Assembly: GCA_036172245.1 (NCBI GenBank) | Contig: JAYWIR010000002.1 | Location: forward strand, 4,340,001 to 4,404,000 | Length of the DNA stretch: 64,000 nucleotides | Direction of reading: 5' to 3' | Source: Raillietiella orientalis | Lineage: Eukaryota | Shown here: piece after piece, positions 7,252 to 58,409 of the stretch | How the letters are laid out: every line of letters begins with the position of its first letter | Numbering within the stretch: position 1 is the first letter of the stretch | Translations under genes and position numbers: made by a program | Notes under the pieces: model-generated | What the model saw: only the letters and a program-made list of their open reading frames with translations | Told to the model about the DNA's origin: nothing | Database searches by the model: none

Positions 7252-7333
<82 letters not shown>

Positions 7334-13300: not shown

Positions 13301-16300
13301 ACATACACCTGTACACACATACATCTCTTTATATATAGACACTGCACACACACATACACACTAAGCACGCACGCACACACATATGCGCATACTCACACTA
13401 TACATATGTGTGTACACACGGAATCTGGAATTGGCTTTCACGTATAAAACGAAATGCAGCCGTGTCGACCGTCCTTCAGCGCGCGCACGAACGCAACTCT
13501 GGTTGTGGCGCGTGACGTCGGGAAAGCTCCCTGTGCGCGCTGGGACCCCGGGACGCAGACACCGATCTACTTTTCGGAGCGGGTTCCAGGAAGAGAGCGC
13601 GCACTCAAGGACTCCGGGAGGAACCTTGGGCGGATCACACTCGGCTAATCCCCTCTCTCCCCTTCCCCTTCCCCCCCTCCCCGGACTGCGCCGCTCCCCC
13701 GGTGCGGCGGACGCGCCGGTGACCCAATGACCCAATCCCTTTGTTTCCAGTGATCCGTCCAGATAGGAAAGGGCCCGTTCGCCCCTTCAGGAAATCGCGA
13801 CGGCACTCTGCGGTTTTTCGGGAAACCACAGAGGAATCGGCCAGGAGACCAACCCGGGATCAGCAGCGCGCGAAGCAAATTGAGCTGGATTGCGCGGTGG
13901 GGTAGCGGCATCAAAGGCGGGGGACAAGGAAGGTTTCCCGGAAGTGCCGGACGGAATGCGTCGGGGCCCCCGCGAGCACCCAGGATCGCCTTCAGGCGTC
14001 GACCGGGGGCGGTTGCGGCGTAGGGAGCGCGTGGGCAGCGACAGCCCAGCTGAAGCCGTCCTCTCCCCCCTCCTTCCCTTCCCCGCAAGCAGACCGCCAA
14101 GGGAAGACTCCAATGGAACGTTCCCCAGAACGCTGGCTCCGGGATGATCGAGTCCCCACGCTGGTCGGCGAGGACCCCCTCCGCCTAGCTCCCTCTCCCC
14201 TTCCCTCTGGCACCATGGTCGCCACAGCAATTTTCTGCGTGAGCGACCGCGCCCAAGCAGGGGTCGCCGCCATCATGAAGGGGCGCAACCCAGTGGGAGC
14301 GGAATGGCAGGGCACGTGGAGGCGTTGGGAGGACAGAACTGGAACCCAGGCACCAGCAGGAACCGAAAGAGTAGCGCGTGGAGGAGGCGCTGACGCGGAG
14401 ACGAAGGAAGAAGGCTGCGCGCGGCATCTTCCTGAATAATAAGGGGAGGAGGAAGAGGCTGCGGAAGATCAGTTTCCGATGGAGCCAGGGCGGCGGGAAC
14501 GGTGCAGGGGCGCGAAGACGGAGCGGATTGGATCTCTTCCAGAGCTCCCCTCTAGACAGTCGCGACCTCCGACCCCTTCGCTTCGCTTCCGGTCCCGCAG
14601 AGCGTTCGTGAAGCTCGCGAGAGGCGTCGTCGCTTCCGCCGGGGGGTGGGGGTTTTATCTGCTTCGACGAGAGGGGGACGGCTAGAACCGACCGCCAGTC
14701 GCCGGCTCAGGAAGATTCTGGTGACCTCGCCTCGGTCTCGACTGTGCGATACGACCCTCTTCTCCCCCTCTGTTCAATTCCCCGCTCGCGGCACCGGTCG
14801 ACGCCGCGCCCCATGTAGATGGGGGACGGGCGATGACCCTTTCTGGTCACCGGCTTCCTGCAATGCCGGGCCCTTGCGCCCGTTCCATCCGCCTCCTATT
14901 TCACTTACGAGCTCTCTGCAGCCTGCTCGCCGGAGACCTGGTTGATCCGCAGCTTGTATTCCCGTCGGCGTCCCCGGCTGCGTCACGACTGCACCGCCTC
15001 GAGGGATCGCCGCCTAGTCGACGCCAGACCCGCCGCTGCGGTCGAAAATTCCGATTTCGATCTCCCCCTCCCCCGTCTTCCTATGACGGGTCCTGCCGAA
15101 CCCGCGCGAGCGCGCCCGCTCACGTCCTGACGGGAGTGGCGTGTGGCTTCCCAAACCCGCGCGCTCCCTGGCATCGCGGTTCCCCGAGATCCCCTCGCAG
15201 CCTCCACCTTTCCTGCAACAGGCGCCTCCCCTTTGGAAGATCCCCTTCCTCTCCTCCGTTCTCTTCCTGCCACTCGTCGGGAGAGTTTCACGTCTTGCCG
15301 CACGCCGTTCGTACGGGGTCCACCCTGAGTGGAAATGCAAAATGGTCAGGAGAGGACCTTCCTTCCTTCTTTTCCCGCGCCTCTTCGATTCGATCTCGAG
15401 CAACATCAAGGTGGACCAATGGAATGCCCCCGAAATGGAGTTTTCTTTTTTCTCCAGCCTTCGGTGAGCTGCTGCAAGCTGGTGGGCCACTAGCGGACCG
15501 AGGCGCCGCCACGGTAGCCTGTCCCAGCCGAGAAACGTCATACCGCCTCCACCTAGGAAGTCCACGACTTTCCAGCTACCCTCGCCTTAATCTGCTATCC
15601 ACCAGCCTAGCCGATGCTGCAAGAGGTGGCCCGACGCGTGACCTGCTCCGGACCGTTCCGTCCTGGAGTCGCGAACTCTGCAGCGTTCTCGCTCCTCTTT
15701 CCGAAATGTTCCAGCTTGCGGGAATTCCGGCTCGAACAAGGACCGCGGATGCCACTGCTCTTCCTCCCGAGGAACCTCGCGCCAAGGCCGAGGGCTTCTT
15801 TTCCTCTCCTCGCTTCTTGCCCCGGCAAGGCGAATCTCCCGTCGAGAGCAGCAGTCGACGTGAAAGGACCGTTTTCGAAAAATGTGGCACTGACCTCTTG
15901 GCCACCCCGCCGCGAGGTCGCTTGAACACGTGTGATTAACCACATTCAGGAAGCATTTCATAGGGGTGGGCCTTGGAGTTGCTTCTCCGCCATTTTCCAA
16001 ATTCCTTGGCCCGGTGGTGGCCGTGTTTGCGATGCCTTCGAGCTGTGACCCGCTGACCAAGTTGCAGGCAGTCATGCAGTCCGGCGTGCGTTTCGAACCC
16101 GCTTCCTTGCTTCGAGGACGCGGCAGGGACTGTTGAATGAGTATAAAATACGGATGGCACCCTGACCACCGAGCTCTTTCTCGGAAAGCCGTAGAGTGGT
16201 CCTTCGTAAATTTGACCCCACACACTTGAAAGGCACTGCTGCTTTTCGATTAATTTCGACTTCGCTCGTCCTCTGCAGCTCTTCAGCAGGATATCCCGTC

Positions 16301-19300
16301 GGCACACTTCCCACAGCTCTTCGTACATTTTCGGAAACCTCCCCATTCGCCAGTAGCGGTTTTGTCTTGCGCATTTCGTATGCTCCACTTTCCTGCTTCC
16401 GTAGGATGCCTTTTGCTTTGTCCCGAATGTTCAGATGAAGCGCTCCCGTGAGGACAACCATCGCGGTCGATTTGGGTCTCGGTTTTTGCGAGCGCAGCCG
16501 ACGTCCTTTGCGCAAATGGTTTTAGCGGTTGTCATTTTCTTTTTGCTTTTTTTTCTTTTCTCCTGTGGAACCGATCCAATAAAGACGTGTCCAGGAAATA
16601 CGATGATGGCGACACAGTAAAGGACAACAGTTTCGAGCAACTGCTTTGGAGATGACGGATCATCCCCTCCTTTCTAAGACGCGGATTCGGAGATGTGCCA
16701 ATGCCGCCGAAGCTTTCGTCTCGCCCAGCCCGTGCCTCGGCAATGCACCTCCTGCTTGATTCCCACGTGCTCCTGAAACCCTGGCGGAGGCTTCACGCAC
16801 TCGTGCCTATCCTTAACTAATCGTTTTTTTTTTTTTTTTTTTCGTTTGTTTTTGTTTTCGTCTTTTCTTGTTTCGAAGCCATCAAGAACGCGAGACGAGG
16901 AACAGATCTGCCTCTGGTCGAGAGAGCGTCTGCCGTCCGCCCGTCCAACTCTGGAGTATCTGCCTCTCTGTTTTGAGAAGAATGGAACGTCCGTCGGGCC
17001 GTCTGCTGGTGTGCAGAGGGTTTCCTTCTCGCGGGACCCGAAACGCGAATCCACCTGGTGCTCCAAAAGGGAATGCAAGCTGCTGCGACCTTTCGAGGAA
17101 GCGGAAAAGATGCTCCTTGCTAAGCGAGCAGTCGCTTCCTCTCTCGAGTGGCACTACCAGGTTCGCCGGGCGTCCGATCGAAAGAGTGGGCAAAGCCTTG
17201 GGGAAAAGCAAAGAGTACACTCACCCTGGAGGAAATCGAATTTTGCTTGCTAGAGATGTCCTTCGCTTCTAAAATACTCAGATGCATCACACTAGAAAGC
17301 ATTTCGTAACAAAACGTAACTTTCAGAAACCCACACACAGGAAGTTCTTCCGGGCAGAATGCCGACGTGAGTTTCTGTTGATTGTCTTCAGTTTCCTGGG
17401 AACACAGTTGAGTGTGGACGTTGCACAGCTTTTTTTTCTTTCTACTCACAGAGACGGTGAACCAGAGGTCGTTGAATCTGTCATTCGGCAACAGGAGATC
17501 GTGTTCTTTGAGTGACGATGGATTGGGATTTTCAAAATGTGGATCTCTGTGGCTAATGATGCGGTGAAAGTAGTCATTGTCCGTGGAGAAGGAACTGTCA
17601 GACAGAGAGTAGCTGTTTTTCCTGTGAACGAAATCTTTCTCTTCCGGGAAGCTGCTCTCGAAATCTACCTCATCCTCGTTGAAAACTGAAACAGAAAGCA
17701 GTCGTGAAGCCGTGTGTTCTTTGTGATGCGGAAGGCCTGGCCGGATCGTGCACGTCACAGCAGAGAGCTTTCGGGAGGATGTCATAAGGAATCTGCGAAA
17801 ACGAGACGAGTGGGCACATTTTTCTGTGCGCTGCGTAGCCAGGGAAACGCGTGCGGTAAACAGTCTCGACCGAGACGAGATCGATTCGGAGACAGCCAAA
17901 AGGCTCACACGGGCAGCTGCTTGGCTACCAAAGGTGGGAGCGAATAGTTACAGGAAATGCATTGCTCTCCCAACTACGTTCTGCGAGATGTGATTCGTTC
18001 ACAAGATTCACCAGGGTACTGTACGAAGGCAGTGGGTCAGGGAGTCACGTGTTGGGGTCACGCGAAACTTGATCTTAACAAACGTGAGCAAGAAACCGAT
18101 AGGGAAGGAGCAAAGTCAAGTTCATGGGTGCATAAATCTATTACTCGCCCATCAATAGTAGATCTGACATTATTGCGAGCTGGTCATCTTCATCTAGGCT
18201 AAGGCTTAACAGCAAACGAGATTCCTCGATGGAGCGACCAAAGTCCGACGGTCTCGTGACGATTAGAGGACACCGCTCCGAGATGCAAGCAAAGAAAGGA
18301 GGTTTGTCAGGAGGGAAAGAAACGCCGCTGACCAGATGCAACAAATTAATTGCTGGGAAGCAAAGTCCAGTTTGGGAAACCACGAAATTTGGAAGACAAA
18401 ATGGATGTCCTTGATGTGCCCCGAACAGAGATAAGCAAGTCAGACCTCCCCCCCCACGACAGCTAGCAAAAGATGGATCTCGAGAAAGGAGCAGCTTGAT
18501 GCTGGCATGTTAAATACGAACAGGCACCAAGAAGATCCCAAAAGGAAACCTTTCATGCCAAAAATAGTGATTAAATAGTAACTCTCACGGTAGCTTTCGG
18601 ATAATTCTCAGAGTCGATAATAATCCACATAATAATTCGCACAAGAATCCGGAAGATATAGATAGCAAGATGGTATACGTTCCAACCTTTGAGGATCCAA
18701 AAATAGGGAACTTTCAAAACGTAGCAACGTTAAATGGATGTATATTAAAAAAATGCAACTTTGTTTTCAACTTGGTTCTTAAAATAGGCAACACTTGATG
18801 GAATTTGGTCTTCCTAAGCGATCAAAGCCCTCACACATGGTATTTGCATCCACATGAACTTCGAGTTCCGAACTCCGTTTACAAGAAATCTTGGGAAAAC
18901 TGTGGCAAAGAAGGCAATTTTGCAAAAACAGTAAATAATAACAGCTATCGTCTGCTTAATCTGCAAAGGCATCAAAGTTATACACAGTGGTATGCCTCCA
19001 TCCTTCCAAGAGGATCGAGGCATACCACTGCCTAACTCGGGATCCTCTTGCCGTCACAAACCTCCCCGACACACAGGACACCAGAACGAGGATCTCATAA
19101 GTTCGGATCACGGGTGGTGAGTTTTGCAGACGTCCTCTGAGGCAGGCAAAAAGATCCCCAAACACCGGTGGTGACAAACACGCCTTCATTCCCGTGGTCT
19201 GGAAGCGACAGCTTCAACACCAAAAGCAAAAGTGTTTGGAAACACCCAGAGCAAAATTCACCGTGACTTTTGCAGCCGTGTTCGAAACGCATCCCTTGGA

Positions 19301-22300
19301 CAGTGTGCGTCAGGAAGGGTCGCTGAAAATTTTCGCGACGCGGACGAGTTTCGGGAATGACCCCATTTTAAAATTTGAAACGAGTGGGTTTGCTGTTTAC
19401 ATGAGCTGAAGGTAAGAAATAAATTGCTCGTAATGTACGATTTGTCGCTTGAACTACATGAACAAACAGGCATGGGTTCAACAAAGGTTTCAGGATTGTA
19501 CACGTACTTTGATACATCGGACTGAATAAGTGCATGTGTCTGCCCTATCAGGAGAAGTTTACATATTAATGAAGCTCTCCTGCCACGCTGAAAACTTACC
19601 TTGTTAGAAATCTTAGGCCGTTTGAACTAGAATGTTCTCTAGAAAATGTATATCCATCTACACTGAAATTTCTTTTCCGACGTCATACCATATATGCATC
19701 TGCAACATACACTCCGATTATGAACGAAACAAATATGAAGGAAGTAATCAGAAAGAAGAAGAAAAAGATAGGGGGGGGGGGATCTTTATCAGATTCAAAG
19801 CTTGGTGTCATCCTCACTTTTTGCCAAAAAGGTAAGGACCGCTCGAGAAAACGTAATTTGCCTTTTATTTTGGAAATGCTCTTTTCTCTATGGATGCTCG
19901 CGGTCTTCTGCCGTGTGCGGAAACTGTTTCCAGAATTGCTGCCTGGATCCGCTTGCCAGGGCAAGGCAAGGCTCTTCGTGTTTCACGGACTGTCTTGGAT
20001 GCTCATGCATAACTTACAGCACTTCCACTCGAACGTTATTCAGGAGGCAACTCCATAATTTACGGCCACTCTCCAGCAATGCAGCTCGTTTCCGTGTTTC
20101 AGGAGGGGGGGGGAGAGAACCTGTGAGGATCATTCCGAAGTGCTATAAGTCATGTACGCTTGATCACGTCAGCAGTAAGGAAGTGGCAAGGGGCGCTGAA
20201 GGACTCCGGACGTCGCAAAGGCGCTGCGGAGTCCGCGCAGAAGGGGACTTCGTGCAGCCCGTTCGCGTTTGCCATCGAGAACGCATTCGTGAAAGCAGGC
20301 GGTGGCGGCAGCAGAGATGCTGGGAAGGCTCAAGACGGGCCTAGAGGGAGGGGGGGGGGGGAACGAAGCGGTCGGAAGCTTTTCCAGACACAATAAGAGT
20401 GGGTGGGAAAGGGTTTTTGAATAGAAGGGCAGCAGCAAGGAGACTTCGACCGTTTGCAGTCACGGCTGTTTCTCGAGGTCACAGTGGCCAATGCCACTGC
20501 CCCCGTGGAAAGACGTCGCCAGTTAACGAGCGGGGATCATGCAGCCGTGATGGCCGCGGAAAGTCGGATGATTGGAAGACGGTGGGAAGAGGAAACTTTG
20601 AGAAAAGCAAAAGAGGAGGACCAAACAAAGGCGCCTGGGAGGCAGGGATGAAGAAGGATGCGTGATCTCTGTTCTGTCGCCAGAATTCGCATCTGGTTCG
20701 GAAGGAACAGAATCTTCGGTAAACGTCACAGGATGTGCAAAGCACGATTCATCGTTCTGTCGTTACTAAGACGAGGCTTCTTCGTCAGGTCCTTATTGTT
20801 TGCTGACTGGAGTCACGTCATAATGACCAGGGATGTTCGACGTGCCTTTGGTGAACAAGCATTCTAGAACAGAAATCATTACCGGACACCTGGACCAAGA
20901 AGCTCTCGTCTTTTTTTCAATTCCAGTCAACGGATCATTCGCGTGGAAGACACGAAACCGAGGAAAGTGCGTGGCTGGAGGCTACGCGGCGCGTACGAAA
21001 GCTGGTTGGTTGTAAAGCTGGGATGACAGATATCTGAGTTTTGGTCGGAAGCACCTCTGGTCATGGGAGTAGGTGACTTCTTATCTATATCCGCTCCACG
21101 GAATGAATTCGTGATCACCTCCAAGATCCATGGTGACTCATCACCTGATAGATCGGAGAAGACATCGACTCATGATTGATTTCCTAGACCTATCAGTCAG
21201 TATGGCTCGATGAATGTACATGGAAGGTTTGAAGAATTCAGGAGTCTGGAAGATGAACTCCCTCTTTAGGCATTAAATACTCCCTGGGAATGGACTAACT
21301 ATCTGGAAGAAGAAGAAGAAAAAAATTGCGCTTCGTGAAACTTCATGGGAGCTGAAGGATAGGGAGTGAATCATTCCTTCATTTTTCTTTTTCCTTCTTT
21401 TCACCTGGAGATTCCTGGTAAGTTCCATGAAGGCCATAATCGGGTGAGACTGAAGTCGAAAGTTTCCGAAAGAAGAGATAAAGGCTGTCGCGTTCCGGTC
21501 GCTTGCGCTCAAAACAGCGCTCCAGACGGTTCCCAAGCACAGAGTACTGGAAATGGCTACGGGACGCGTCAATTCCTATTCCTCATTTTTCTTTTTTTTT
21601 TTTCACCAGTGGCCTTTCTGGTACCAGATGCTTCGCCGGATGCATTCATAATAACGCCGTCGGAAATTCAGATCTCCAGGAACGAAGGTTAACGGAAAGT
21701 AATGGTCCGTGATCGAGGGAGTGGATGACAGCAGCATATGAATGCGTAGTTTACAAATAAAATCCAATGCAACGAAATGTTTCGAACGCCTGGAATGTGT
21801 TGCCGTTTCTGTTTCGTTAAGCAGAAGATAAAAAATAAAAATAAAACGGTGGAATGCGATGCTGAAGAACGTGAAATGACCTCTCTGTAAAGAGAGGCGA
21901 AACGAAAGAACGAACGGTATCTCTGTAAAGGGAGATACCGCCAACCGCAGCTCGACCACGCCGCGTCCACCTTCGCGTCTGCGGAAAAAGTTCGCCCTCC
22001 ATCAAGCCGGCACTTTCCTTCACGAATGCGTTCTACTGAATCCTCAAGAACTTACGAAGACTTAAGTACGCTGGCCAAAGTCACCGAGGATAACATCGAA
22101 AACAACACGGTGACCTCTCGGCAACATGGAGCAAGGAAACCGTTTCCTGGATTTCCAGCTTCACTGTGCTTCCGTTTTTCGTCCACGGATGTTCTCAAAC
22201 GGGATGACTGTTTGACCTGCCGGCATGGGGTTCCAGGACGTCCTCCGGATCTCGTTTGTAGCTGTGGTTCCTCCCACGAGCGTTGGAACACGTTGGATTC

Positions 22301-25300
22301 GGCCCCGCCGGAACACAGTGGTTCGATGCACACGGGGGAACCACTGCCATCGTGGGTCAAAACGCCGCAGTTGCTTGCAACCACCGTGGCTTCCCGATGC
22401 TATGCTTTTTGTCCTCCGTCGCTGTCGATCCCCGCTGATCTGTCTTCGGCTCCGCCAGTGTGTCTCACTCCCGGTCGACCTTGGTTACCGTTCCTCCGTG
22501 CATCGGCACTTCAGGTCCACTGAACAGCAGTTTCCATTTCGGTTCTGCTCTCAAGGGCAAAGTCCACCGTGTTTCGGTGTTGCATGCGGGTCATCGATTT
22601 TTCCACTGCGTGTTTCGCACGCCTGGATCCTCTGCGTTGAGAACACCTGCAGCATGTTTCCGATGCAGCACACGTTCCACTGTGCGGTCCACAGATGCGG
22701 AAAGAAAAGGCCTGCGCCATTCGCACTGGGTCGGGTTTTCCCGATAATGTACGCCGGGCACTGACCAAAGTCCATGGAAGCGTCATGGTAACAAGTCGTG
22801 GTAATATCGATCGAGATGGTAGAGTTCGCTTGGAGACATCGGAGACGCATAAGCGGATTCGGGATCAGCAAATGTGGAAGCGTGAAGATGTAGACGAAAA
22901 GATTGGAACCATCGAAGCGTTCAAGCGTTCCAAAACTATTCGATCACCTCGGTGATGGCGGTCTCGCGCGTGCGCGCTGGACGCATCCGTTTCCCGCCGT
23001 AAGCAGGAGGGAGGGAGCAGAGCAGAACCGGGCACGTTGGAGGGCTTCCAATCGGATCACGTGAAACCTCTCCTCCCCCCCACGACACCGCCTGCACCAG
23101 GGGACCGCGAAACCAGCGGGAGCGGCTTCCCGATGCCCTCCAGGTGGGGATTTTTTACATGCTGAAGGTGCCGCAGCTCGCTGAGACCGTCCGGACGGAA
23201 TCCCGAGAGAGGGACGTTTGGGAGCAGCTGCAAACGAAAAACCAGTGCCGAAGTGGTCTCCTGACCACCCTCGTGCGAGGGGGGAAAGAATAGTCTGCGG
23301 ATGCGTTGCGTCGTGACGTGGCAACAGCTGTCTTCCGATGGAACCTTGCATGTTGCCCACATCTTTCCTAAAGGGGGGAGGAAGGGGGGTAGGGGGGTAA
23401 ACACTCGAAGGATCGGAGCTCATTCACAAAATAAATAAACAGTGGAACGGATCGTGTATGATTTCACGTACATGATCTCGTTTGACACGCTACTGTGACC
23501 TTCTCGGCTGTCGATCGATCACGTTGTGCTCGCGATGGAACACCTGCTCGCGCCACTCGGCTGTTTGTAATCCCATTGGCGTAACCCCCAAGGGTGGGAA
23601 GGATGTTGTACGCACCCTTGAGGTCACCTCCATGTTCGACTGCCCTCCCGACCGTTTTTTGTTCTCCTCACTCTTGATCCCAATTTTTTTCCCCTTCCAT
23701 CAGCCACCTTTCAAACGCTTCCGCGTCCTTGGCCTTCCTTCCTGCTGCGGCATGCCGCCAGAAGGAAGGAAGCGGCGTAAAGGCGACACCTGGTGGCCGT
23801 TGCTTCTGGCGATCTTCTTCGTCCTTCGACCGTCGATGCCCCTAGGCCCCCGTTGGCACCCCTGTTGCTGCTTCCTCGCGTGCGCGTTTCAGCGAAGCGG
23901 TTTCCTCCCCATCATCGAGAGAAGGGTCTAGGAGACTTCCTTCGTAGTTTTCACCCCAAGCTTTCCCCCCTGCTGAGAGAATGATCCGGGCAGCAGCCGC
24001 AGCTGGACAGTGGCAACTCGCTCCCGGACGCAGAAATCTAGCCGTGCGGGAGAATCTGCTTCGCGTTTCGCTCTTTCCACGAGTGCGCGCACCACCTTCC
24101 GTCCTCGGAGGCGCGCCGCCGCTGCCTCTTATCCACGCCCGTCCGTTGGCCAGAAGGAAGGAAGGAAGGACGACATCCGGAAGGGCTCACAGAGTCCCCG
24201 TGGCTGGAGCTCAGCTTCCCGCCCCCCTCTGCTGCGCAAGGGAGGGAAGGGGCTGCCGATATCTCCGCCTTCGTGTTTGCCCGCGGCGATCACCTTTGAC
24301 CGCCCTATGCAAACAGCCAATGAAACGCTTCAGCGAAAGCGAATCGCCGGGGTTTTTTAGCAGTCATGGCAACCGATTTCTCCCGCATTTCATTCGTCCG
24401 GGTAGCTCGTCTTCGCCCTCCTGTAGGGCCTGCGGTTCACGGAGTCTGGTCAGGTACGCCGTGACCCACCTTGAAGATCACACCGTCGTCCGGGCAGTTT
24501 CCGGGTCCAACGCCTCCATGAAACGAGGGATTGCTAAACGGGGAGCCTCTTCTTTCGCTCGAGCACGGAAGGGAGGAAGGGTTGTAGGTCACGAGGTCCT
24601 GGCTCTCCCCTTCCCCGGAAAGCTCTCTGCCTTTCCTTCTCTCCCTCCGCGTCTTGCCGGAGCGGCGGTCCCTGCGCAACCTCTGGAGGAAAACGGGAAC
24701 CAACCCCAATTCCGCCTCCCTCTCCCAGGAACCCACCACTGCGAAGACCTCCGCTTCGCTCGCCTCTCTCCAGCCGGATGATGGAGGGAAACTGAAGAGA
24801 CTCTGCCACATTGCCGACGAGCACCCCGCGGCGGCGGCTACAGCAGAGGCGACCACCGCGGTTTTCCTCCGCACCGACGGAGGGTCTTCTTCAGGGGTTC
24901 AGGGCAGTGGCGAGCGGGTCACACGCGATAGAGGATGGGAGTCGCTCACTCGCTTCCCTCCCCTCCCCTCTCCCTCCCGCGAGGGCTCGCGCGCACAGAT
25001 CCAGCAATCCCTCTCACGGGAAAGCGAACAATGCGGAGCATACAGTATCGAGGGGGGGAAGGGAGGGAGGACCACGGCCTGCTCCCGGCACCACCCTCAA
25101 TGGGCGGAGCCGATCGCCTGTGCAGATGGTATCGAACACGGGAAGAAGAGAGCCTCCAGGTCGCATCCCCATCCGGTGGTCCAGCGACCAATCCGCGATC
25201 GCGGAGAGGGCGCAGCGAGCGCGGCCGGTCCGAGAGGGCTGCCTCCCGCCTTCGCGAGGGCACGCCAGCGTCATCAGGAAGACGCGAGTTGGGAGAGGCG

Positions 25301-28300
25301 AGCGAGCATCGGCTTCGTTTCCAAGCTAGCTGCCCACATGCGAGCGCAAGAGCAGCCTCCGGGATCCGAGGGGCGGGTGGCAGAGTATCCAAGGGATCCA
25401 GTCCCAAGAGCCTCCGAGGACCGCGGAGAGGGCTCGGAAGAAGAGACGGGCGAGGCAGGAAGAGGAGGAGGCGGTGGTGGTGAAAAATCCCCCCCCTTCT
25501 TTCATCCCCCCCCTCTCCACTCTTCGGCGTCGTTTCGCGCGGGAACGTCGAAAACCCGACGTCGTTAGCGTGCTGCGAGCCGGTGTATATTCCCTCCCCT
25601 ACCTCCGGGGGTTTCTTCGCAGCAGCAGTGGGGATCCTCTCAGAAGGTCCTTTCCAGAATGCCGCGCGCTGTGACCAGAACGGGTTCGTTCAACGAGCAT
25701 CCCAGGATTCGTTCCTTTTCGCTGTTGCTGTCTTCGTGGGAGCCAAAGAGGAAGCTGCGTAGGCACAGACGCTCGAACGCAAGGATCTTTTCGGGGTTCT
25801 TTCGTTTCCCTCGGCGGTTGCCCGTCGGAGCGCCATGGGCGGTTGGTTCCTCCTGCCTCTTTCGTTCGCTTCCTTTCCCAGCCTGTTCCCTCCGCCTTCC
25901 CTCGAGAAAGGACCGATTCGGGGGTGATCGGACCAACGGGAAAACGGGAGGACCTCCGCACACGTGACCGAAGAGAAGAATTCAAAGAGGGAAGCTGGCT
26001 GCTGCGAACTTGGAATCCACGAAGGGTGGCGTCGCGCCGAGAGCGAAACCGCGACGGGCAAGCAGTTGCGGTTTCTCCAGGCGGCCCTCCGCGTTCCTTC
26101 TGGGGACGGAAGCGCCGCACGCCGCTGCAGAAAGGTTGGTCGTTGCCGTCCTGCAAGGGATGGGAAGGCTGAGCCATGAAAGGCTTGGGCCTTCGTGATC
26201 AATCGGATGACGTGCCCTTTCTCCATGACGACGAGTAGCGATTGGGTACGTGGAGACTGCTGAAGAACACACACATGCACAGAAAGAAAAAAGAAAAGGT
26301 TCGTTTCGTTGCACGTCGGGAGTAACAGCGAGTTGCGAAACGATATCTATCTACCACATTCTATTAGTACAATGCTGAAGAAACTTTTCCGAGCTCTGAT
26401 GCATTCGGAAAAGCTTTTGATTGTTGATAGATTATTTTGATTGATAGATCGATTGTTTTGTTGTTGTGGTTGTTTTCTGGATGCCGTCACTCCAGGTTCC
26501 AGTTCTCGTGATGTGCTGACGAACCAAATGATTACAACGACTCTGGAGATTGATTTTCAGGATTGCTGCTCCGGGCGCTTCGTCCTTCCTTGCCTTTCCT
26601 TGTATTTGAGGTATCCATGGAGACGAGGGGGACACGGGAGGTCCGGACACTTCCTTTCTCGGAGGACACCAGCAGGTAGCTCCTACTACTACTCGAAACG
26701 ATTACTCAGCGAGCCATCTTGGTGGCACTCGATGGCAGCGCGACCAATACTACATCAACCAATTCTCAGTCTACAAGTTACATTCAACATACCCTGTAGA
26801 CTCGAATTTTAGCGCCGCCGCACGAGAGAGGGGGGAAGGGGGGGGGAGAATGTTTCTAACGAAAGGAAATGCATCCTCTCTTGCGTACGCGTTGCTGAGT
26901 TGCTCGAATCGAGCTTTGATGACTTTCCTCCACCTATCTACTATACGCTCCAGGCTAAAGCAACATTTCTACTTATGCGTGCGTGTCTGCGTGCAAGGAG
27001 AAAGGTTAGCATGGCGTAGAGAGTACGTACATATCTATACAGTGTATTAGTGTGCAACTATGTGCTAGAATACTAGCAACGGTGTGTTATGCTGCTAGTG
27101 TTCCAGAAGCAGAAGGCACTGAAGAGGACACTTCTGTGTACGGTCATCACTGTTGCCAGTATGTACACGTGCACCCTAGTATCGTGCACCAACATAATAT
27201 GCATATCATCATTTATGCACTGCCGTATAGTGCATGTTTGCGACAGTGCATATGTACACACATAGCGTGTATATGTACACACTAGCCCCCGTCGGAGGCT
27301 TTGTGGTTAAGGCTTCCGCGCGTGGCACCATGAGTCGCGGGTTCGAATACTTCGGCAGATAACTGACGCCACTGCGTCGTCGAGTTCCGAGTTTCTCCTG
27401 CAGTGGCTCTGGTTGGCCGAGACATTCGGGCGTGGCACCGGCGGTGGATAAAGCCCCGGAGGCCTCCCGATGAAGGCCGAAACAATGGGAGTCGACCTTC
27501 GGGTCCTCCCAGGAATAAAGGAGTGGGGAGTTCCCCCTCCGGTCGTGCAACGGAGAGCGGACCCCGTCACCGGGGGAGCGCCTCCGGTTTCAAGATGGAG
27601 CAGGAGCCCTCACGGGCACCTCTCCAGTTGTTCAAAGGAGCGGATCTCCCTGTTGGGGGGTCCCTCCGAGTCGTCGCCTCTTCACAGAGTGTGCACAAGG
27701 AAGCAAGCGAGAGCGATTCCCTGTGGGAAGCTGCAGCGCCCCTTCTGAGTTTCGGAAGCGTCCCTTCGGGGTTCTCTTCAGAGGAGTGAACAGGAGCGGT
27801 TCCCTTGGGGGTTCCCTCCGGAGAAGAAATTCCTACAAGCGGATGCTTTCCGGGTTCCCCTCGGAGAAGTTGAAATGGAGAGGACCACCCCCCGTTAGGG
27901 GGGTGTCCCTCCGGAGAGAATGAGGAAGGAGATTCCCTTCGGGATTCCCCTTCGGAGACAACCAGGGTGGAAGGTGCGATCCCCCCCCGTCCGGGGGGGA
28001 TCATTCCCCAAGCGTGAGAGGAACGGACTCCGAGCCCTTCCTGGATTCATTGGGCGGACCCCATCCCGGGGTGCCCCCTACCACTGAAGAATTACACGCC
28101 CCCCCTGCGGGTTGCCGCGCGCGGAGAGGCGTGGAAACATATGTACACACATAGCGTATGTATACGTGTGCTCACACGTATACTTGCACTATTAAATCAA
28201 CTTCTGTGTGTTGTGTGTGTGTGTGCACGCACATCAGTTAATAGTGTATATCTATACACCCACATACACTTCGATCTCTGCCGAGAAGCTGAAGACGCAA

Positions 28301-31300
28301 AGCGCGTGTAGCAGCACGCGTTCGTCAAGGAGAGGGACGACACATTCCCCCGCGCGGACGCGCATCCTTCGGACCAGCCATACTCACTCAACCTGCGGCC
28401 CGCCAAACTTCCATGCGCGGCTCACATCATTCACACCTATTAAGTATTTTTTTTAAAAAAAAAAACTTCTGATAGTCGGGCGGTGGTTTTTATGAAGGGC
28501 AAATCGTGGGCGGTTGGCCCCCGCGCGCACAGCGCCTCTCGCGGGCCGTGTCGTTTGTTTAGTAATCCATGGCAATAACGTCGGTGCGTACAATGTTAAG
28601 CGTTGGTACGCGGAAAGAATACAGTCTGCGCTCAACTCACCGCAATTTAAAAAGCGTTTGTTTACATCCATCCGTTCTTCCGATTTTTTTGCACAAAGTG
28701 TATGAACGTAAAAAAAAATTTCTGGTGTGCTAAAACGTGTAGGATTAATGAAAATATATTAATGTATGAAATTTTTTTTTACATGATTGTATCATAACAC
28801 ATAACGTACTATATAGAGCCCCGTGTAATGCTGCAAGCTTATGTATGTGGCCCCGAGGAGAAGGAAGGTTGGGTATCCCTGCTTCAGACGGGCAAGCGCC
28901 CTTGCGCTCCACGCGCCATCTTGCCGATCGCGGTCAGGTGGTGCTGCTGGCTGGCTGACCTGGGGCCTCGCAGCCGCGGACGAGCGCCGCACGCGCTGTC
29001 CGGGGTCCCGGGGCGCGGTGCAATGCCGGAAGCGGAGCGAACGAACGTCCGGCTGCTCCCAACGTCCTGCTCCGTGGCCTTCCCGCGCCCCGGGACATGC
29101 CACGGATGCACGCGCCACTCAGCCCGAAGCAGGCAGGCCACCTCGCAGGCCACGCGCTCCTCCGGGAACCGGCTCTTGCCCAGTGAAAGCAACAAAGTCT
29201 TACTTGATTCGTAACTGTTCCTCAGGAGCTTCCGATCTTTCCCGGCGTGCACGGGAGTTGGAGAAGCGCCGAGTATCGGGCTTGAGGTCATGGAAATTGC
29301 GCTTGCAAACAGAGACTCGCTGCGAACGCACCGAACCTTGCTTTGCTCCATGCTATCCTCGCTATCTGAAAGACTAGGGTTCCCGACGCTGAAACACTCC
29401 TCTGCATGAGATGAAGAAGGCATTAGCACGGGGGGGAGACTCTCCCCCAGGACGTCCATACTTACTAAAAATTTGCAACGCATCTACTGTTCTAAAGTTT
29501 ATCAACCTGCTTTGTCTGTGCGAATTCTTTCCGGTGCTCACTGGTGGAAAGCACCAAAATAATTGACAAGTTCTGAACCTGTTTTATCTATTTATTTATT
29601 TTACGCAAACATTTACCAATCCGGAAATGATTCATAGAAGAAGCAGTGCAATCTCACGGTGCATCAGATTTCAGCGATCACAGCGATTGTTGCTACTGTT
29701 CTGAGTCAACGGGAGTGACCTCTCGGACGGAGGAGAAACGAGTGCAAAGTCGCTGGGGACCTTCGGGAGTCCGTAGGGATGCCGAGGGCGAGACCATCGA
29801 TCAACGCACCGACGTGGCGTGAGCGGGACCGCATCCGAAGCGGCGAGGTCAGGCGCGCGCGGGGGGAGGGCAGTCGCTTCCCGGTGTCATCCGGACGCGG
29901 AAAAGACGAGGGCGGCACTCGCGCGCGACTGCCAGCCGCAGCGGGCCGGTCGATCTCGCTCGAGGTCGAACCGTCCGCTGGACGCCTCCTCCACCTCCTC
30001 CGTTTCCGCTGGGAGGTTTCGCCGCTGCCCCGTTGCAACGACCAGAGTTTCCGGTCCAGGTTGGCGTGCAAGAAACGCCAGTCTGTCCAAGAAATCGTCA
30101 CCTGGAAGGCAGATGAGCTGCCGAGGGATGCAACCACGCGGCCGCCGCGACCGTCTTCGGCCGACTAAGGTCGCGTCTCGGGTCGAGGTCAGTCGCGCGC
30201 GCACGTGGGGCAGTGCGTGCACGCGCGCGGGGGAAGGCCATCCATTAATCTTCCTCGGCGGCGGACGCTCTCCTGAAGCGCTGACTCCCGCCTGCAAGCC
30301 CCTCCCCTCCCTCCCCGCAAACCTTTCCGGTTCCGGAAGAGCGAAAAGCTCCCAGAGATCGCTTCTTTTGCAAGCGGGAGCGAACTCACCCCCTCCTCAC
30401 TCCGCCCCTCTTCCCCATCGGTAGCGGCGGCAGGCTAAGGGCACAGATATCGCTGCTGATCGATCTCGACTCCGTCTTTGCCCCCCTCCTTCCAGGAGGA
30501 GAGAACCTGCAGAGGCTGCGCTCGGAAGCCTCCCATCATCACGAAGTTTTAGTTTTTATTTTTTCAAGCAGATGGCAGGAAGATCGACGCGTCGTCTCCC
30601 GTCCCACCGGACTTCAGGCAAGCATTTCAGAAAGAGGGGAGCATGAAAAAGTCCTAATCCCCTCCCGTGTTCGGGAAAAGCCATAGCGAATGTCATGGGG
30701 GAGGGAGGTGAGAGGATAAGGAAGAAAACGCGCTGCCGAGACGATCCCCGCTCGAAGGCATCCGTCACGGCGCGGACGGCTGGTCGCCAGAAAAGAATCG
30801 ATCTTCAGGCGGACGGACACCAAATCGGACAGTTCACAGATTTTTGTTGTTGTTTTGCGACTCGCATATCCCCGGAACGGGAGGCTGGAATCCCGTCACG
30901 GAGAAAGCCGCGGAAGGCGAGCGGGAAGCATGTAACCGCAGGTCGCGACGCGCGCACCTGGGAATGAAGAAGGGTTGCCGACGCCGCCGATTCTCTCTCA
31001 GGTCGCGATGGCCGCGAGATGGATTCCGACCCGATCCAGGCCACCCTTTGCCGTTGCTCTTGCTGCGGCACGGAAGGGATGCACCCCTCTGCGGCCGAGC
31101 GCCGCCGATCCGGCGGGAAACAAACGTCCACGATGAGAAACCGCCGCCGCAACGTGTGATCCAGCTTCCGACCCATCTTGCCCTCTATCCCTTTCGGCAG
31201 CGGGATTCAAGATCGGCGAGAAGCCACCCCTTGGGGGCTCCATCTTCCACCGACCACCTCGACCGGTTCACGTTTCGGGATCACAGTCGACTGGCTCACG

Positions 31301-34300
31301 CGTTGGGAAACGAGAGCCAAACAAGCTTCGCCACCGGCGGACACGTTTGCTGTCCCCCTAAGAGCAGCAACGAAGACATCGCTGCCGTGGCTTTGGGGCA
31401 CACGCGAAGGAGACCTCTCTTTCACTCTTGAAAAGACTGGCCCATCGCTGTTGATTCCGGCTCGGGACGGAGAGACCACCTCGGAAGACCCGCGAAGTCC
31501 TCTGGATTCAGTGCCCCAGCTCGGAAACTCGCGCGGTTGTTCCTCCCGCGCTGGCTACTGGACTGCGGTTCCGATGGCGAAGAGCGGCGAAGGGAAGTAT
31601 TCTGACGACGGGACTTCCTCCTGCTGCCCCTCGGCATGAGCGGCCAAAGCCGCCTCGTCGCGGAGCCGGTTGTTTCAGAGGGTGCTCGGAAGTTGGACGA
31701 CGGAGTCGGGAGTCGCCGAAAGGAAAGGGGAGGAGGGAGGGCACCTTGCCCGAATCGTTCACGCCGCTTTCTGCGGAAGCATCCTCTGCGGAGAGATTGC
31801 GCCCAAGGAAGCTGGCAGCTCCAGGGTCCACGCAGAGGCCGGAAAGATTATTTTCCCTGAGAATCCGGGAGCGAAGGAGCGGAGCAGGGAGACGCGCGGG
31901 CCTCATCCCTGCGTTCCTTCCCTTGTCACTTCGTCCGAGTCTCTTGAAAGACTCCAGTAAATATTTGCTGCATTTTTTTTGCTGGGTACCACCATTCTTC
32001 AGCATTCACAAAAAGAGAAAGAGAAAAAAAAAAAGCGTAACCAAAGAGTCGCGGGTTGCTGAGCTTCTGGAGGAGCGCATGGGGCTACTGCCACGCACAC
32101 TCGGGTGCGCTCTCCGGTCGCGAGGAGGCGAGAGCCAATTGGGATGTCCATCTGCAACAGCCTCTTCTTTACCACGAGGATTCACGGGGCATTAGGTGGC
32201 AGGGCTGTCGCCACCTCGACACGTCTTAGGGCTGCCTGTTGTGAACTCAAGCGTTCAGCTCCTCGGAATCGGCCTTCCCCGCGGGAAACCCATACCCCAG
32301 GAACTGAATTCCCAATTCCAGTTAAAAAAAACACACACACACAGGCACGGAGTTTTTTTCAGCGCGTACGGATCTGAAGCAAAACTCCCGGCAGTGCAGA
32401 CTTCAAGCGAAGCCCTGCATTCGGGTGAAGTGCCGTTGTTCCCTCTTCCTCCTGCTGGCAGATTCGTCCTGCAGTGGTTGAGCCTCGTGCTGCAGGCTGG
32501 CCAGATTTTCCACAGCCTGGAAAAGCGTTTTCCGTCCCCATGTTTTTTTTTTTTTTTTTCTTCCGGAACCACCGCTGCCGTTCCCTTCCCTGCATGTGAC
32601 GCTCCTTCGCCGTCTTTCACTCGAGATTGATCTTCAAGCGATTGGAATTCTGGTTCGGCGTACAGTGGTTCCCTCAGCATTATTCCTGTCGCAGCATCCG
32701 TAAGTCAAAGACGGCACTAATTTTCTGCCCTAAGGAAGCATCTCTTCCTTTCCAGATGGCCGACAAACCACGTTCGTGGGGACACGTTTTTTAGGATCGT
32801 CGTCAACATCGGTAACGCCTTTGGGGTCCGTGCGTTCGGTATTGCATTTGGATCGCAAGACCTGGCTGCTTGAATCTGGGGTCACATCAATCTGCTGCTC
32901 CTCCTGCATCACGCATGCATCCGCGCCTCACCGTTCACGCCGACCATCAGTCATTCAATGCAGAGGAATCAAAAATTGCTGTGCCCCTCTACCCCCCCTT
33001 TTTTTTTTGTCCCAAGGTCGCTGCTCACAGTTCCCGGTCTCGGAATCCAGGGGAGAAGAAAAAGGGATGCACTCACGTAGTGCTTCGTTTTGCAAGATCC
33101 AGGCTGCAGAGCCATGGAACCTCATACAGAATCACTGGCTTGATGATAGTTCCGTGTGCACCCATTGGCCGTCTTGACAACACGAGATCAAAGTGCGAGG
33201 GCTCAAAATATGTAGTTCATAGCTGCTCTGAATGTCTTCATTACCTATGGAACCGCCTCTTCAGCTGACTCTCCTGAAACCCTATTCATCCTTCCGGTCA
33301 TACAATGATATCTTGAAAAAGAAATCACAGATAACTCCAGCTTGTCTTAGCAGCCACCGTGCTGTTCGTTTCCTTAAAAAATCTCCTGATTGATTTTTTG
33401 AACCGACTACGAAAACAATCGAGATGCTGAACAGAAAAGTGCGAAGATAATCTTTCTTATCCGAAGGCCGTCCATGAGTTTTTGGGAGGTGGGAGATGGG
33501 GAAGGGGCATATAAAATTTTATTACAGCTGATGCAAGTTCTAGTCCACACGATATTCTTCATCCTCTAACAGTGGACCTACATGAAATGTGGTATTCTCT
33601 AGAAATCTTCTTTGAAGAACTTTTATGTTTCGAACCGTTATATGCCGCTCAGTTAGCACCTGGAGCTTGCAGCAAGTGCGGAAAGGCATCTCCTCCTTCG
33701 GATGCAAGCTGTGCTGTGTCCGCCAAACGGAGATGGTGTTCAGACAGCTCGGAATGCAGCAAGTTGCTTCCCACTCCAGGCACTCTCAACGAACGAGCTG
33801 CCCACACACAAGTCATCAGCTCCACCGCCACACCACCTCTTCCCTCAGATCAGTCCCCTACTGGCGATCTGCAGATGAGACAACTGAAGAGATAGTTCCG
33901 TGCATCCACTGCCGAAATGGAGCTTTGAACGGTCGTGCTGCTTTGTTTCGCCGCCATGAAATTGATGGCCAAGCATTACTGCTTCTGAGCAGTGTGAAGT
34001 GCAAGAGTCTCGCATCGGAACCTGTTCAGTGTCCTCTTTCCTCCTGGCACTCGCCCCTATCAGAATCATGCTTCCGACCGTTGTTCGTAAGTTTGCAGGA
34101 AGCAGCAGAGTAGAAGACGTGAGTGAATGCACTAAACAAGCAAGGAACGAAAACAGAATCCCTCTGAAATCAACTGGAAAAATAGGTGTTGGTCTCAGCA
34201 CGTGTCGTGAAGACTGCACCTCAGTTGCTGGAAGACGTATGCGTTCTGTTAAAGCGCTCTGTCAGCAGCAACACGCCTAGCGAAGAAAGAGAGGAAACCC

Positions 34301-45010: not shown

Positions 45011-45066
<56 letters not shown>

Positions 45067-57228: not shown

Positions 57229-58409
57229 ATGGTAAGACAAGCTTAAGGAATAACCCAAATACCTACATCATTACGTTTAATATGTTATTATTTTAGGCCA
57301 AGAGTCCAATCAATGTGTGTGTGACGGGAGCTGCTGGACAGATTGCCTACTCCCTTTCATACTTAATAAGCAAAGGCGATGTATTTGGGGCAGATCAGCC
57401 CATTAATTTACGTTTACTTGATATTCAACCTATGATGGAGACACTGCAAGGTGTCATAATGGAATTAATGGATTGTGCATTACCTTTACTCAAAGGTGAG
57501 AAAGCATATACAATAGGATTGTAAGTTTTCTGATTTCTTTAGAGTTGGTGGGAACATATGATGCTGAAGTAGCTTTCAAAGACATTGATGCAGCCTTTTT
57601 GGTAGGAGCTATGCCTCGCAAAGCAGGCATGGAACGAAAGGATCTCCTGAAAGCAAATGTTGGTATTTTTGCAGCACAAGTAAGAAAAATGCCTTTTTCA
57701 GTATGATTGTTATATGTGCATACTTTATTAGGGTCGAGTTCTCGATAAAGTTGCAAAAAAAACAGTGAAAGTATTAGTTGTAGGCAATCCTGCCAACACT
57801 AATGCTGCAATCTGTTCTAAATGTGCACCATCCATCCCACCCCGTAATTTTAGTGCCATGACACGCTTAGATCAGAATCGTACTACTGCACAGATTGCTG
57901 CTCATCTGGGCATTGGTTCTGAATCTGTGAAGAATGCCATTATATGGGGAAATCATTCATCCACTCAGTTTCCAGATGTGAAACATGCTTCTGCATTGCA
58001 AGATGGAAAATGGGTACCTGTATATCAATGCATTCATGATCTTGCTTGGTTGCAAGATGGTTTAGTTAGTACTGTACAGAAGAGAGGAGCAGCTGTCATA
58101 GCTGCACGCAAATTATCGTCAGCTATGTCTGCAGCTAAGGCTGCTTGTGACCACATGCATGATTGGTGGCATGGCACTGCACCAGGAATTTTTGTTTCAA
58201 TGGCTGTCAAGTCACAGGGTGCATATGGAGCACCTTGTGATGTTTTTTATTCCTTTCCGATAACCATAGCTAATAAGGAATGGAAGGTTGTTAATGACCT
58301 AGAAATTGATGAATTTAGCCGCCAAAAAATGGAACTAACCGGAAAAGAACTTGTGGAAGAACTGAGTGAAGCTGAACAATTTTTGAAAAATTCACAGGGT
58401 TTTGTGTAG
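57229..58409 (+). CDS. MDH1: Cytosolic malate dehydrogenase, join(57229-57231,57297-57495,57543-57679,57732-58409), 338 aa
   Basis: ATG|gtaaga micro-exon followed by GT-AG introns of 65, 47 and 52 nt; 1017 nt in total. MDH1 motifs: [94 protein letters not shown]. Confidence 0.97.

Follow-up and report, generated by a model that had tools for sequence, protein, structure and literature searches.

A cytosolic malate dehydrogenase gene, with arthropod proteins as its best named relatives, is the only one recognisable in the window (here, the whole stretch of 64 kb that was analysed). The named matches of an exon of this gene, from arthropods, stay at or below 71% identity, and one unnamed protein reaches 91%; in the protein atlas the exon falls only into generic dehydrogenase clusters. 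Elsewhere in the window lies a GC-rich element, the subject of this analysis, with the following parts and flanks.

27249–27286, no strand assigned: 5' flanking direct repeat resembling a target site duplication, matching the 3' flank best at 27249–27274
27285–28137, plus strand: the interspersed element in full (853 nt, 62.5% GC), with copies in the sequencing runs X1 and X2
27285–27485, plus strand: 5' module ("head"), with motif-level features in its sequence
27486–27957, plus strand: tandem array with about 11 degenerate units of 34–50 nt, seen in anchor spacing, unit alignment, and hairpin energies
27966–28078, plus strand: two further GC-rich hairpins (27978–28002 and 28052–28076) lacking the GGAG/CTCC base, from hairpin folds and internal repeats
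28095–28137, plus strand: 3'-terminal hairpin (28095–28133; −21.1 kcal/mol) followed by GAAA
28138–28163, no strand assigned: 3' flanking direct repeat resembling a target site duplication, starting right behind the last base of the element

A second copy of the element was looked for in the 64-kb window, and none was found. Copies with different flanks are seen directly in X1 and X2, two other sequencing runs (each with a 0.07 share of the sampled words). The 955-nt contig from X1 covers 27300–28119 with 41 substitutions (identity class 90–95%); beyond the shared end ...GGCGTGGAAAC it continues with 100 letters that differ from the 3' flank in the window. The word depth of one X1 contig is 15.4. 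X2 contributes 116 contig pieces, a number not to be equated with that of copies: 7 pieces at identity of at least 99%, 18 at 95–99%, 42 at 90–95%, and 49 below 90%, with identities of pieces spanning 80–99%. Of these, 83 lie only partly on the element, and a 0.49 share continues into unlike sequence. The sole 5'-side piece listed for X2 stops matching at 27296, close to the start of the window copy. In the two runs, 27150–27260 and 28149–28250 in the flanks are uncovered and the element is bridged by no contig; an empty site is thus not seen, which argues neither way. No RNA run was among those listed as containing the sequence, and this has no bearing on expression. X2 contigs also omit or replace 71–220 nt within the array, a weak observation given the likeness of the units and the 80% likeness threshold.

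Direct repeats are likewise observed at both ends of the window copy. They share 92% identity over 26 nt (17–26 nt on the 5' side) and may reach 26–35 nt; a second, shorter 5' repeat copy at 27270–27286 adjoins the element directly. The local alignment of the two flanks scores 44, a value attained by one in 2000 flank pairs drawn at random from the window. Such repeats correspond to the target site duplications of SINEs and LINE-mobilised retroposons; however, this reading is weakened, since the surrounding host stretch is already repetitive in its own right. It is TG/TA-rich on the 5' side, with a 21-nt tandem at 27246–27286 (Tandem Repeats Finder, period 21), and holds a 16-nt motif in five copies. 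The element itself ends in ...GGCGTGGAAA, with neither a poly(A) nor a simple-repeat tail, and its ends 27285/28137 show no terminal inverted repeats, those found being located in the host flanks or within single hairpins. A preliminary description of this DNA had named a structured retroelement among its alternatives, and the interspersed copies in two other runs, together with the direct repeats flanking both ends, support it.

None of the four longest reading frames of the element contains a Pfam family or a reverse-transcriptase remnant, and with the indels listed for the X1 copy (1, 2, and 3 letters) a reading frame would be lost; hence, we consider the element non-coding. Rfam yields no match at the gathering score in the whole window, including the hammerhead ribozymes of retrozymes and Penelope-like elements, and at E ≤ 1 region 26500–29000 yields only chance-level matches (mir-297, mir-3149, and the serC leader; E 0.3–0.8). 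A 27-nt stretch of the first hairpin has no matches among metagenome, viral, and prokaryote genome contigs.

The 5' module had been taken for a Pol III tRNA head. It contains an A-box-like stretch at about 27302–27312, a B-box-like motif GGTTCGAATAC at 27340–27350, an 8-bp stem (27368–27375/27400–27407), and a weak internal duplication, 27297–27329 against 27405–27439 (score 29 versus 21.2 ± 4.0, with 24 of 500 shuffles reaching 29). A and B boxes are treated in SINEBase as an indication only (PMC3531059), and here B-box motifs with at most one mismatch occur in the window at chance frequency (12 found, 14.2 expected). ARAGORN predicts no tRNA gene; Rfam at E ≤ 10 gives no tRNA, 7SL, or 5S match on 27270–27420 (151 nt), where the only match is a 7-bit one to a Pseudomonas sRNA, and at E ≤ 1 on 2.5 kb tRNA, 5S, and SRP matches are all absent. 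Judged by ARAGORN and Rfam as a proxy, the head falls short of the identity of at least 60% over at least 60 nt to tRNA, 5S, or 7SL by which SINEBase recognises heads. A 19-nt stretch of the B-box region recurs in five metagenome contigs, which have just 19–21 bases in common with it, contain no tRNA, and look coding, hence a chance match. The fold of 27285–27485 shows no excess over shuffles (z −0.7). Taken together, these results do not bear out a tRNA head. Neither TTTT nor AAAA occurs in 27285–28137; however, only about 1.1 TTTT runs are expected from the base counts, and their absence thus means little.

Each hairpin exemplified in the preliminary description is present, with its position as given there or shifted by a few bases, and the stand-alone energies range from −6.8 to −28.9 kcal/mol. 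A unit of the array consists of a purine-rich linker and a hairpin, with the consensus GGAG-C-GGnTCCC-TTNG-GGGnTCC-CTCC; the anchors are spaced by 45, 40, 42, 78, 34, 40, 43, 50, and 41 nt, where two units, fused or decayed, seem to fill the 78-nt interval. The homology between units is seen directly: ten of them, about 40–46 nt apart, can be aligned by sequence (alignment A1) with a mean column identity of 51% and a clear consensus, and three neighbours in a row, at distances of 40 and 43 nt, share 69–78% identity. Tandem Repeats Finder missed the ~40-nt array, since the units are under its identity threshold, and reported only a 13-nt two-copy repeat (27931–27955) and the 21-nt host tandem. 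Behind the array, hairpin 27978–28002 has 10 bp with runs of C8 and G7, and hairpin 28052–28076 retains 83% identity over 18 nt with the core of the hairpin at 27557–27574.

The design that all hairpins had been said to share, a GGAG/CTCC or GAAG/CTTC base with a 5' bulge, holds for part of them: GGAG, a bulge of one or two bases, and CTCC are found in only about eight hairpins, and GAAG/CTTC in two or three, while the design is missing from the three 3'-most hairpins (27978–28002, 28052–28076, and 28095–28133). The sequence alignment A1 and a hairpin-only alignment A2 are out of structural register; the pair tables were counted from the loop and the base instead. In the resulting table (n = 12), the three top pairs are C–G in 9, 10, and 9 hairpins, and the two basal pairs are G–C in 9 hairpins each. 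The one-base bulge lies on the 5' side of every bulged hairpin, in about eight of them at the same place; unit 27793–27819 contains T·T mismatches. RNAalifold on A1 finds only four pairs and no two-sided changes. The proposal that units differ in sequence while keeping their pairing does not agree with the near-invariant top and basal pairs and the alignment of ten units. The conserved parts of the design, being conserved as sequence, are uninformative on structure. On this comparison of sequences, we regard the hairpins as decayed tandem copies of one palindromic unit, not as independent designs; their common design would reflect a common ancestor, the ancestral palindromic unit having been multiplied.

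Much of the design resides in the shared sequence, since chimeric hairpins, built from the 5' half of one unit and the 3' half of another, still fold with a mean of −11.0 kcal/mol, compared to −16.8 kcal/mol for the native ones. Part of the pairing goes further. In 7 of 11 hairpins, no 3' half pairs better with the 5' half than the native one, and the lengths of C-runs and G-runs agree within units (e.g., 6/6, 8/7, and 4/4). Because of this native-partner preference and the matched run lengths, some of the complementarity is unit-specific, beyond shared ancestry.

The array folds strongly. The local minimum free energy (maximum pair span 50) of 27486–28133 is −280.7, against −230.3 ± 10.7 for 200 dinucleotide shuffles (z −4.71), none of which is as good, so that the comparison with shuffles proposed earlier favours the array. 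A regression on GC over 196 windows within the 64 kb sets it furthest from expectation (residual z −5.7); the remaining 23 windows with more than 58% GC average −204, with the best at −245. The minus strand shows an equal excess (z −4.93, 0 of 200). G–U pairs, claimed to mark the plus strand, favour neither strand (17 of 205 pairs on the plus, 13 of 199 on the minus). Three C(UUCG)G tetraloops are indeed present, as C(TTCG)G at 27497–27502, 27764–27769, and 27937–27942, and the 853-nt element holds 5 of the 35 matches to CTTCGG in the window, all five on the plus strand. CTTCGG and the 5'-side bulge are the only strand-asymmetric features, and their asymmetry can be inherited from the ancestral unit. 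The orientation of the element is indicated by these two features and by the B-box-like motif, located on the plus strand 56 nt from the 5' end.

Comparison of the copies gives a mixed picture of the stems. Of the 21 stem substitutions that separate the window copy from X1, 11 disrupt a pair, a number not significantly below the random expectation of 14.9 ± 2.4 (P 0.08). One change is two-sided (27372 C>T with 27403 G>A); in X2, A is seen at 27403 in all three contigs and T at 27372 in none of the contigs covering it, and therefore many copies are mismatched at this pair. Through a paired insertion (C behind 27561, G behind 27571), one stem of X1 is longer by a pair, and a substitution (27767 C>G) turns one of the three UUCG loops into UUGG in this copy. 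When 40 X1 substitutions are applied to the window copy, the local fold improves from −353.5 to −372.5 kcal/mol, whereas random sets matched for substitution type give −344.9 ± 9.8 and are as good as those of X1 in 1 of 300 cases on the plus strand and 3 of 300 on the minus strand. Since the X1 substitutions better the fold, the window copy appears to be decayed.

With a probability of roughly 70%, we interpret 27285–28137 as one decayed copy of an interspersed, non-coding, non-autonomous SINE-like retroposon with a hairpin-repeat body, residing in an animal genome. As such, the element falls among the ordinary genomic repeats and is no dedicated RNA gene. It agrees with the SINEBase description of SINEs as short (<1 kb), interspersed, and non-tandem, with its 853 nt and other flanks in X1 and X2. 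The retroposon would consist of three parts: a 200-nt 5' module with A- and B-box-like motifs; a body in which the ~40-nt unit is repeated in tandem about 11 times, with divergence, and is followed by two or three related hairpins; and the terminal hairpin followed by GAAA. The plus strand would be transcribed, possibly by Pol III from the 5' module. The reverse transcriptase of a partner LINE may then recognise the 3' stem-loop in place of poly(A), hairpin 28095–28133 being the candidate recognition site, and copy the RNA into new sites, which would generate the flanking duplication. The master copy probably carried more perfect stems than the window copy. Several observations speak against a SINE, namely the head without a tRNA, 7SL, or 5S match in ARAGORN and Rfam, the length, the absence of a tail, the repetitive host flank, and the unit-specific complementarity.

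A tentative and on balance unlikely possibility is a mobile element other than a Pol III SINE: a composite retroposon transcribed by Pol II and built around a VNTR, with an architecture like that of SVA/LAVA; a LINE fragment, either internally deleted or 3'-derived; or some other non-autonomous element leaving long flanking duplications. The head that fails the tRNA, 7SL, and 5S tests, the length above the SINE range, and a flanking repeat of possibly 26–35 nt would all fit, and so would the VNTR-like body, with its ~40-nt units and the (weak) skips or replacements in X2; GC-rich VNTR domains are known in composite retroposons (PMC4432496). However, the element has neither a poly(A) tail nor a polyadenylation-type end, its longest frames hold no reverse-transcriptase remnant, and the 5'-side X2 match ends at 27296, i.e., not at a random truncation point.

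A more doubtful possibility concerns the origin of the stems within any such element. Mutational template switching, i.e., fold-back copying during replication or reverse transcription, might create or restore unit-specific complementarity without selection on RNA; such a mutation mechanism has been described (10.1101/2021.04.15.439925, PMC8794818). It would produce a strand-symmetric signal, as observed, along with the matched C/G-run lengths and the paired C/G insertion in X1. On the other hand, switching would tend to erase both the bulge that recurs in about eight units and the T·T mismatches at 27793–27819, which persist, and inheritance from one palindromic unit accounts for most of the pairing.

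Selection on the RNA itself can be considered in two forms. In the first, which we hold to be improbable, the element represents a new architectural type of SINE-like retroposon, longer than the SINEBase families, whose master copies were selected to present about a dozen singly bulged GC hairpins of the C(UUCG)G type on the plus-strand RNA, as a multivalent platform to load an RNA-binding protein or reverse transcriptase encoded by the partner LINE, or as a sponge for a host protein. If true, this would account for the unit-specific complementarity, the matched C/G runs, and the confinement of CTTCGG to the plus strand. The second form, that of the preliminary description, is a structured Pol III RNA in which selection keeps about 13 bulged-hairpin protein-binding sites, as a multivalent sponge or scaffold or an array recruiting reverse transcriptase or capsid; this we consider very improbable. 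In its favour are the very strong fold excess, the five plus-strand CTTCGG (three of them forming C(UUCG)G loops), the single-base bulge equally placed in about eight hairpins, the preference for native partners, the paired insertion and the two-sided change in X1, and an element without TTTT runs. However, the minus strand folds with the same excess; the units arose by tandem duplication, and their common design is a common sequence; the stem changes between copies break pairs about as often as at random; one UUCG loop is lost in X1, and many X2 copies are mismatched at 27372/27403; the tRNA head lacks support; and the missing TTTT runs are matched by missing AAAA. The claim that the array reflects selection on RNA structure rather than simple tandem duplication thus finds no support, in view of the homologous tandem units, the design conserved as sequence, the strand symmetry of folding and wobble pairs, the pair-breaking stem changes, and the head without a tRNA match. 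Selection for a multivalent RNA scaffold appears unlikely on this sequence evidence.

Other candidates were rejected. A MITE or other DNA transposon does not fit ends without terminal inverted repeats, and an LTR-type element (TRIM/LARD) does not fit the lack of long terminal direct repeats inside the element; satellite DNA does not agree with one element copy per 64 kb and tandem repetition only in the internal ~40-nt units. A coding reading, as a repeated PEG-like peptide within a 159-aa minus-strand frame, has no Pfam match, and the copy indels are not kept to multiples of three. A miRNA or Dicer substrate is rejected, the stems of 6–15 bp being below the length needed for such precursors.

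The structure signal at this locus is a property of repeat ancestry and not evidence for a selected RNA, which calls for caution in structure-based scans for non-coding RNA among GC-rich repeats. For genome annotation, 27285–28137 should be masked as a repeat. Should the family turn out to be undescribed, a poorly sampled animal lineage would contribute a SINE-like element of unusual length whose body is a hairpin VNTR, and with it a natural test of whether selection or template-switch mutation maintains the stem perfection of master copies. Among the papers listed in our literature search, none deals with a SINE that has a hairpin-array body.

Among known systems, SVA and LAVA produce Pol II transcripts, carry poly(A) tails, combine Alu-like with other known pieces, and are not known outside hominoids; none of the Pol II, poly(A), Alu-like, or hominoid features is present in the element. 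What it has in common with these VNTR composite retroposons of hominoids, as described in PMC4432496, is non-autonomy and a central GC-rich tandem array that varies between copies.

SINEBase in its 2012 description comprises 175 families of 75–662 nt and defines SINEs as shorter than 700 bp, with a working limit of <1 kb (Vassetzky and Kramerov, 2012; PMC3531059). With its 853 nt, the element is beyond all of these families and the <700 bp definition, and within the <1 kb limit. With tRNA-derived SINEs, as characterised there (PMC3531059), it shares interspersed, non-coding copies of <1 kb, flanking direct repeats, and the layout of head, body, and end; same-strand A- and B-box-like motifs close to the 5' end; and variation between copies by substitutions and internal deletions or duplications. 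It differs in a head that covariance models do not recognise, in its length, and in the absence of a simple-repeat or A-rich tail. The quasi-oligomeric CHRS SINE, whose body is a degenerate motif of ~20 nt repeated more than 10 times (PMC3531059), is similar in architecture, by which alone the two are likened: both bodies consist of a short degenerate tandem motif in more than 10 copies, and the repeat number varies among variants. However, the unit of our element is about 40 nt long and a GC-rich bulged palindrome that forms a string of hairpins, and the host is invertebrate-like.

Finally, in the stringent-type LINE/SINE pairs, as presented in PMC5135761 and PMC6510757, one terminal stem-loop suffices, and a 3' end shared with a LINE is the defining observation; an array of about 12 hairpins is outside the mechanism known from these pairs. 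The 3' end of the element does resemble theirs, with the stable hairpin 28095–28133 located 4 nt from the terminus and no poly(A).

The analyzed element is an interspersed, non-coding repeat. Direct repeats flank it, its body consists of palindromic units in tandem, and we consider it a SINE-like retroposon with a probability of about 0.7. It is a block of 62.5% GC embedded in low-complexity TG/TA-rich sequence. The features discussed are:

27285–28137, +, the element (853 nt)
27285–27485, +, 5′ module, previously described as a Pol III tRNA head
27486–28133, +, array, a string of hairpins
57732–58409, +, exon of cytosolic malate dehydrogenase (Pfam Ldh_1_C, E 6.8e-41)

The window is eukaryotic sequence, and the malate dehydrogenase exon is its sole recognisable gene. 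The open frame of 225 codons covers the C-terminal two thirds of the cytosolic-type protein, hence one or more exons upstream must supply the N-terminal part. Among named proteins, the closest are from arthropods (at most 71% identity); one unnamed protein shows 91%. Stop-free frames, many of them long (up to 404 codons), occur on both strands of blocks with 56–66% GC at about 13000–16500, 23000–26500, and 29000–32500. R, S, P, G, and A abound in these frames, none of the seven tested has a Pfam match, and the blocks look non-coding. CpG observed/expected is 0.99 in the window and 0.81 in the element; this absence of CpG depletion suggests little germline cytosine methylation in the region. 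(TA)n-rich microsatellite stretches are seen at 7225–7665 and 44987–45061, and long T runs at 16803–16843, 21562–21602, 32519–32559, 38627–38667, and 42239–42279.

The hairpins listed in the preliminary description are present in the sequence, and the array folds better than dinucleotide-shuffled controls. With base pairs restricted to a 50-nt span, the local fold has −280.7 kcal/mol vs. −230.3 ± 10.7 for 200 dinucleotide-preserving shuffles (z −4.71, 0/200 as good); the whole 853 nt folded with no span limit give z −4.19 (20 shuffles). Energies of 196 same-length windows of the 64 kb were also regressed on GC. Here the array deviates more than any other (residual z −5.7), and the three scan windows with the most negative values each overlap the element; the remaining windows with GC above 58%, 23 in number, have a mean of −204 and a best value of −245. 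As the array exceeds both backgrounds, its hairpin richness is real and far beyond chance, and the structure signal is genuine. The 5′ 200 nt of the element show no folding advantage over shuffles (z −0.7 on + and 0.0 on −). The next-strongest residuals after the element, z −2.97 at 57673 and −1.95 at 57349 (57349–58320), overlap the malate dehydrogenase exon together with the intron upstream of it.

The minus strand of the array folds equally well (z −4.93, 0/200 shuffles), and the reverse complement of the element gives z −4.19 in the global fold. G–U pairs, earlier thought to mark the + strand, do not do so, accounting for 17 of 205 pairs in the + fold and 13 of 199 in the − fold. All three C(TTCG)G loops occupy the positions given for them earlier; five of the 35 CTTCGG matches in the window are inside the element, all on the + strand. 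We infer that the RNA strand is + from these motifs, from the 5′-side bulges, and from the B-box-like motif, which lies 56 nt inside the 5′ end.

Contigs from two public sequencing runs containing part of the window (X1 and X2) were placed on it. A single 955-nt X1 contig covers 27300–28119 with 41 substitutions and, past the common end ...GGCGTGGAAAC, runs for 100 further letters unlike the window flank. X2 yields 116 contig pieces on the element at 80 to >99% identity; 83 of them lie only partly on it, and about half continue into unlike sequence. Some X2 pieces skip or replace 71–220 nt within the array, these joints being weak, since the units are alike and the likeness threshold is 80%. 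No second copy is seen within the 64-kb window.

The 26-nt stretch directly 3′ of the last base is 92% identical to 27249–27274, and a shorter copy of this flanking word adjoins the 5′ end; of 2000 flank pairs drawn at random from the window, 1 reaches this alignment score, evidence tempered by the repetitiveness of the host flank itself. In the host flanks (27227–27286, 28135–28260), Tandem Repeats Finder shows a 21-nt tandem at 27246–27286, and the repeat finder shows a 16-nt GTGTATATGTACACAC-like motif five times (family D1) and flank-to-flank inverted repeats (27227–27260 vs. 28159–28192; 28151–28170 vs. 28173–28192); the latter tool reveals neither terminal inverted repeats nor internal long terminal repeats of the element. 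No Pfam family matches the four longest frames of the element, and among the indels that distinguish copies are events of 1, 2, and 3 letters, through which a reading frame would not survive. At the 3′ end stands a hairpin of −21 kcal/mol, then GAAA, with no poly(A). That the element has no TTTT means little: base composition predicts about one, and AAAA is missing as well; the first + strand TTTT past the element belongs to a run of about 9 T directly followed by about 11 A at 28444–28466, about 300 nt 3′.

The array had been attributed to selection on RNA structure rather than tandem duplication. This is not borne out: the units are tandem copies, and in an alignment of ten of them, cut at CTCC-GG anchors, column identity averages 51%, with a consensus including ...GGAGCGGnTCCCTTGGGGGTTCCC.... 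Spacings between anchors (or close variants) are 45, 40, 42, 78, 34, 40, 43, 50, and 41 nt. Three adjacent units, 40 and 43 nt apart, are 69–78% identical (D2), with several further cross-unit matches (D3–D5, D7, D9, D10); the units are too dissimilar for the identity range of Tandem Repeats Finder, which therefore does not detect the ~40-nt unit array. In 12 hairpins, pairs 1–3 counted from the loop outward are C–G in 9, 10, and 9 cases, and pairs 1 and 2 from the base inward are G–C in 9 of 12 each. With top and basal pairs nearly constant in sequence, the shared hairpin design is shared sequence, and is neutral on structural selection, neither for nor against it.

Chimeric hairpins, combining the 5′ half of one unit with the 3′ half of another, still fold, averaging −11.0 vs. 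−16.8 kcal/mol for native ones. Some of the complementarity is unit-specific: in 7 of 11 units no other 3′ half suits the 5′ half better than the native one, and the lengths of C-runs and G-runs correspond within units. Any hypothesis of selection or template switching would have to explain this residue. Template switching, for which a mechanism creating perfect stems has been published (10.1101/2021.04.15.439925), remains a rival as its source.

The 40 substitutions listed for the X1 copy relative to the window copy were mapped on the local fold of the latter: 19 are unpaired, 10 pair-keeping, and 11 pair-breaking, vs. 16.4, 8.8, and 14.9 when substitutions of these types are placed at random. 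Pair-breaking changes are not significantly depleted (P 0.08), and the test, omitting most indels and using the window-copy structure, is indicative only. The X1 set improves the + fold (−372.5 vs. −353.5 kcal/mol; random sets −344.9 ± 9.8, 1/300 as good) and the minus-strand fold (−350.3 vs. −341.9; 3/300 as good). Positions 27645 and 27647, T in the window copy, carry C in X1 and most X2 contigs, restoring C–G pairs. X1 shows a single two-sided change (27372/27403) and a single paired insertion of C and G (27561/27571); X2 contigs have an unpaired combination at 27403. The simplest reading is that the palindromes were more perfect in the family master and have decayed in the window copy. A multivalent scaffold RNA, as initially proposed, is improbable.

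The proposed Pol III tRNA head was not recovered: ARAGORN finds no tRNA across the 64 kb, and Rfam yields no match at gathering score in the whole window, nor a tRNA head at E ≤ 1 (2.5 kb) or E ≤ 10 (151 nt). GGTTCGAATAC (27340–27350) has one mismatch to the B-box consensus; 12 such fits are found in the window vs. 14.2 expected. The stretch around 27302–27312 presumably resembles a class II tRNA D-loop, and we take it as a lead. The 5′ module has a weak internal duplication, 27297–27329 vs. 27405–27439 (D8; alignment score 29 vs. 21.2 ± 4.0 for shuffles, reached by 24/500), and one X2 contig skips 27355–27483; the head may be a quasi-dimer whose second half is optional in some copies.

The structure signal is explained by ancestry: a palindromic ~40-nt unit was multiplied in a SINE-like retroposon, of which the window holds a decayed copy. 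Pol III could transcribe the element from the 5′ module, and a partner LINE recognising the 3′ stem-loop, not poly(A), would copy the RNA into a staggered break, which would give the flanking duplication. LINE/SINE pairs with such recognition exist, according to PMC5135761 and PMC6510757.

Literature searches brought up no description of such an element, which may nonetheless exist. By the SINEBase criteria (PMC3531059), the element is a short interspersed repeat with a target-site duplication, and with ARAGORN and Rfam as proxies no formal SINE head is recognised; at 853 nt it is longer than the families listed there (75–662 nt). The closest architectural precedent for its repeat-built body is CHRS, a SINE with a body of a ~20-nt degenerate motif repeated >10 times (PMC3531059); the VNTR domains of hominoid SVA and LAVA (PMC4432496) are a looser one.
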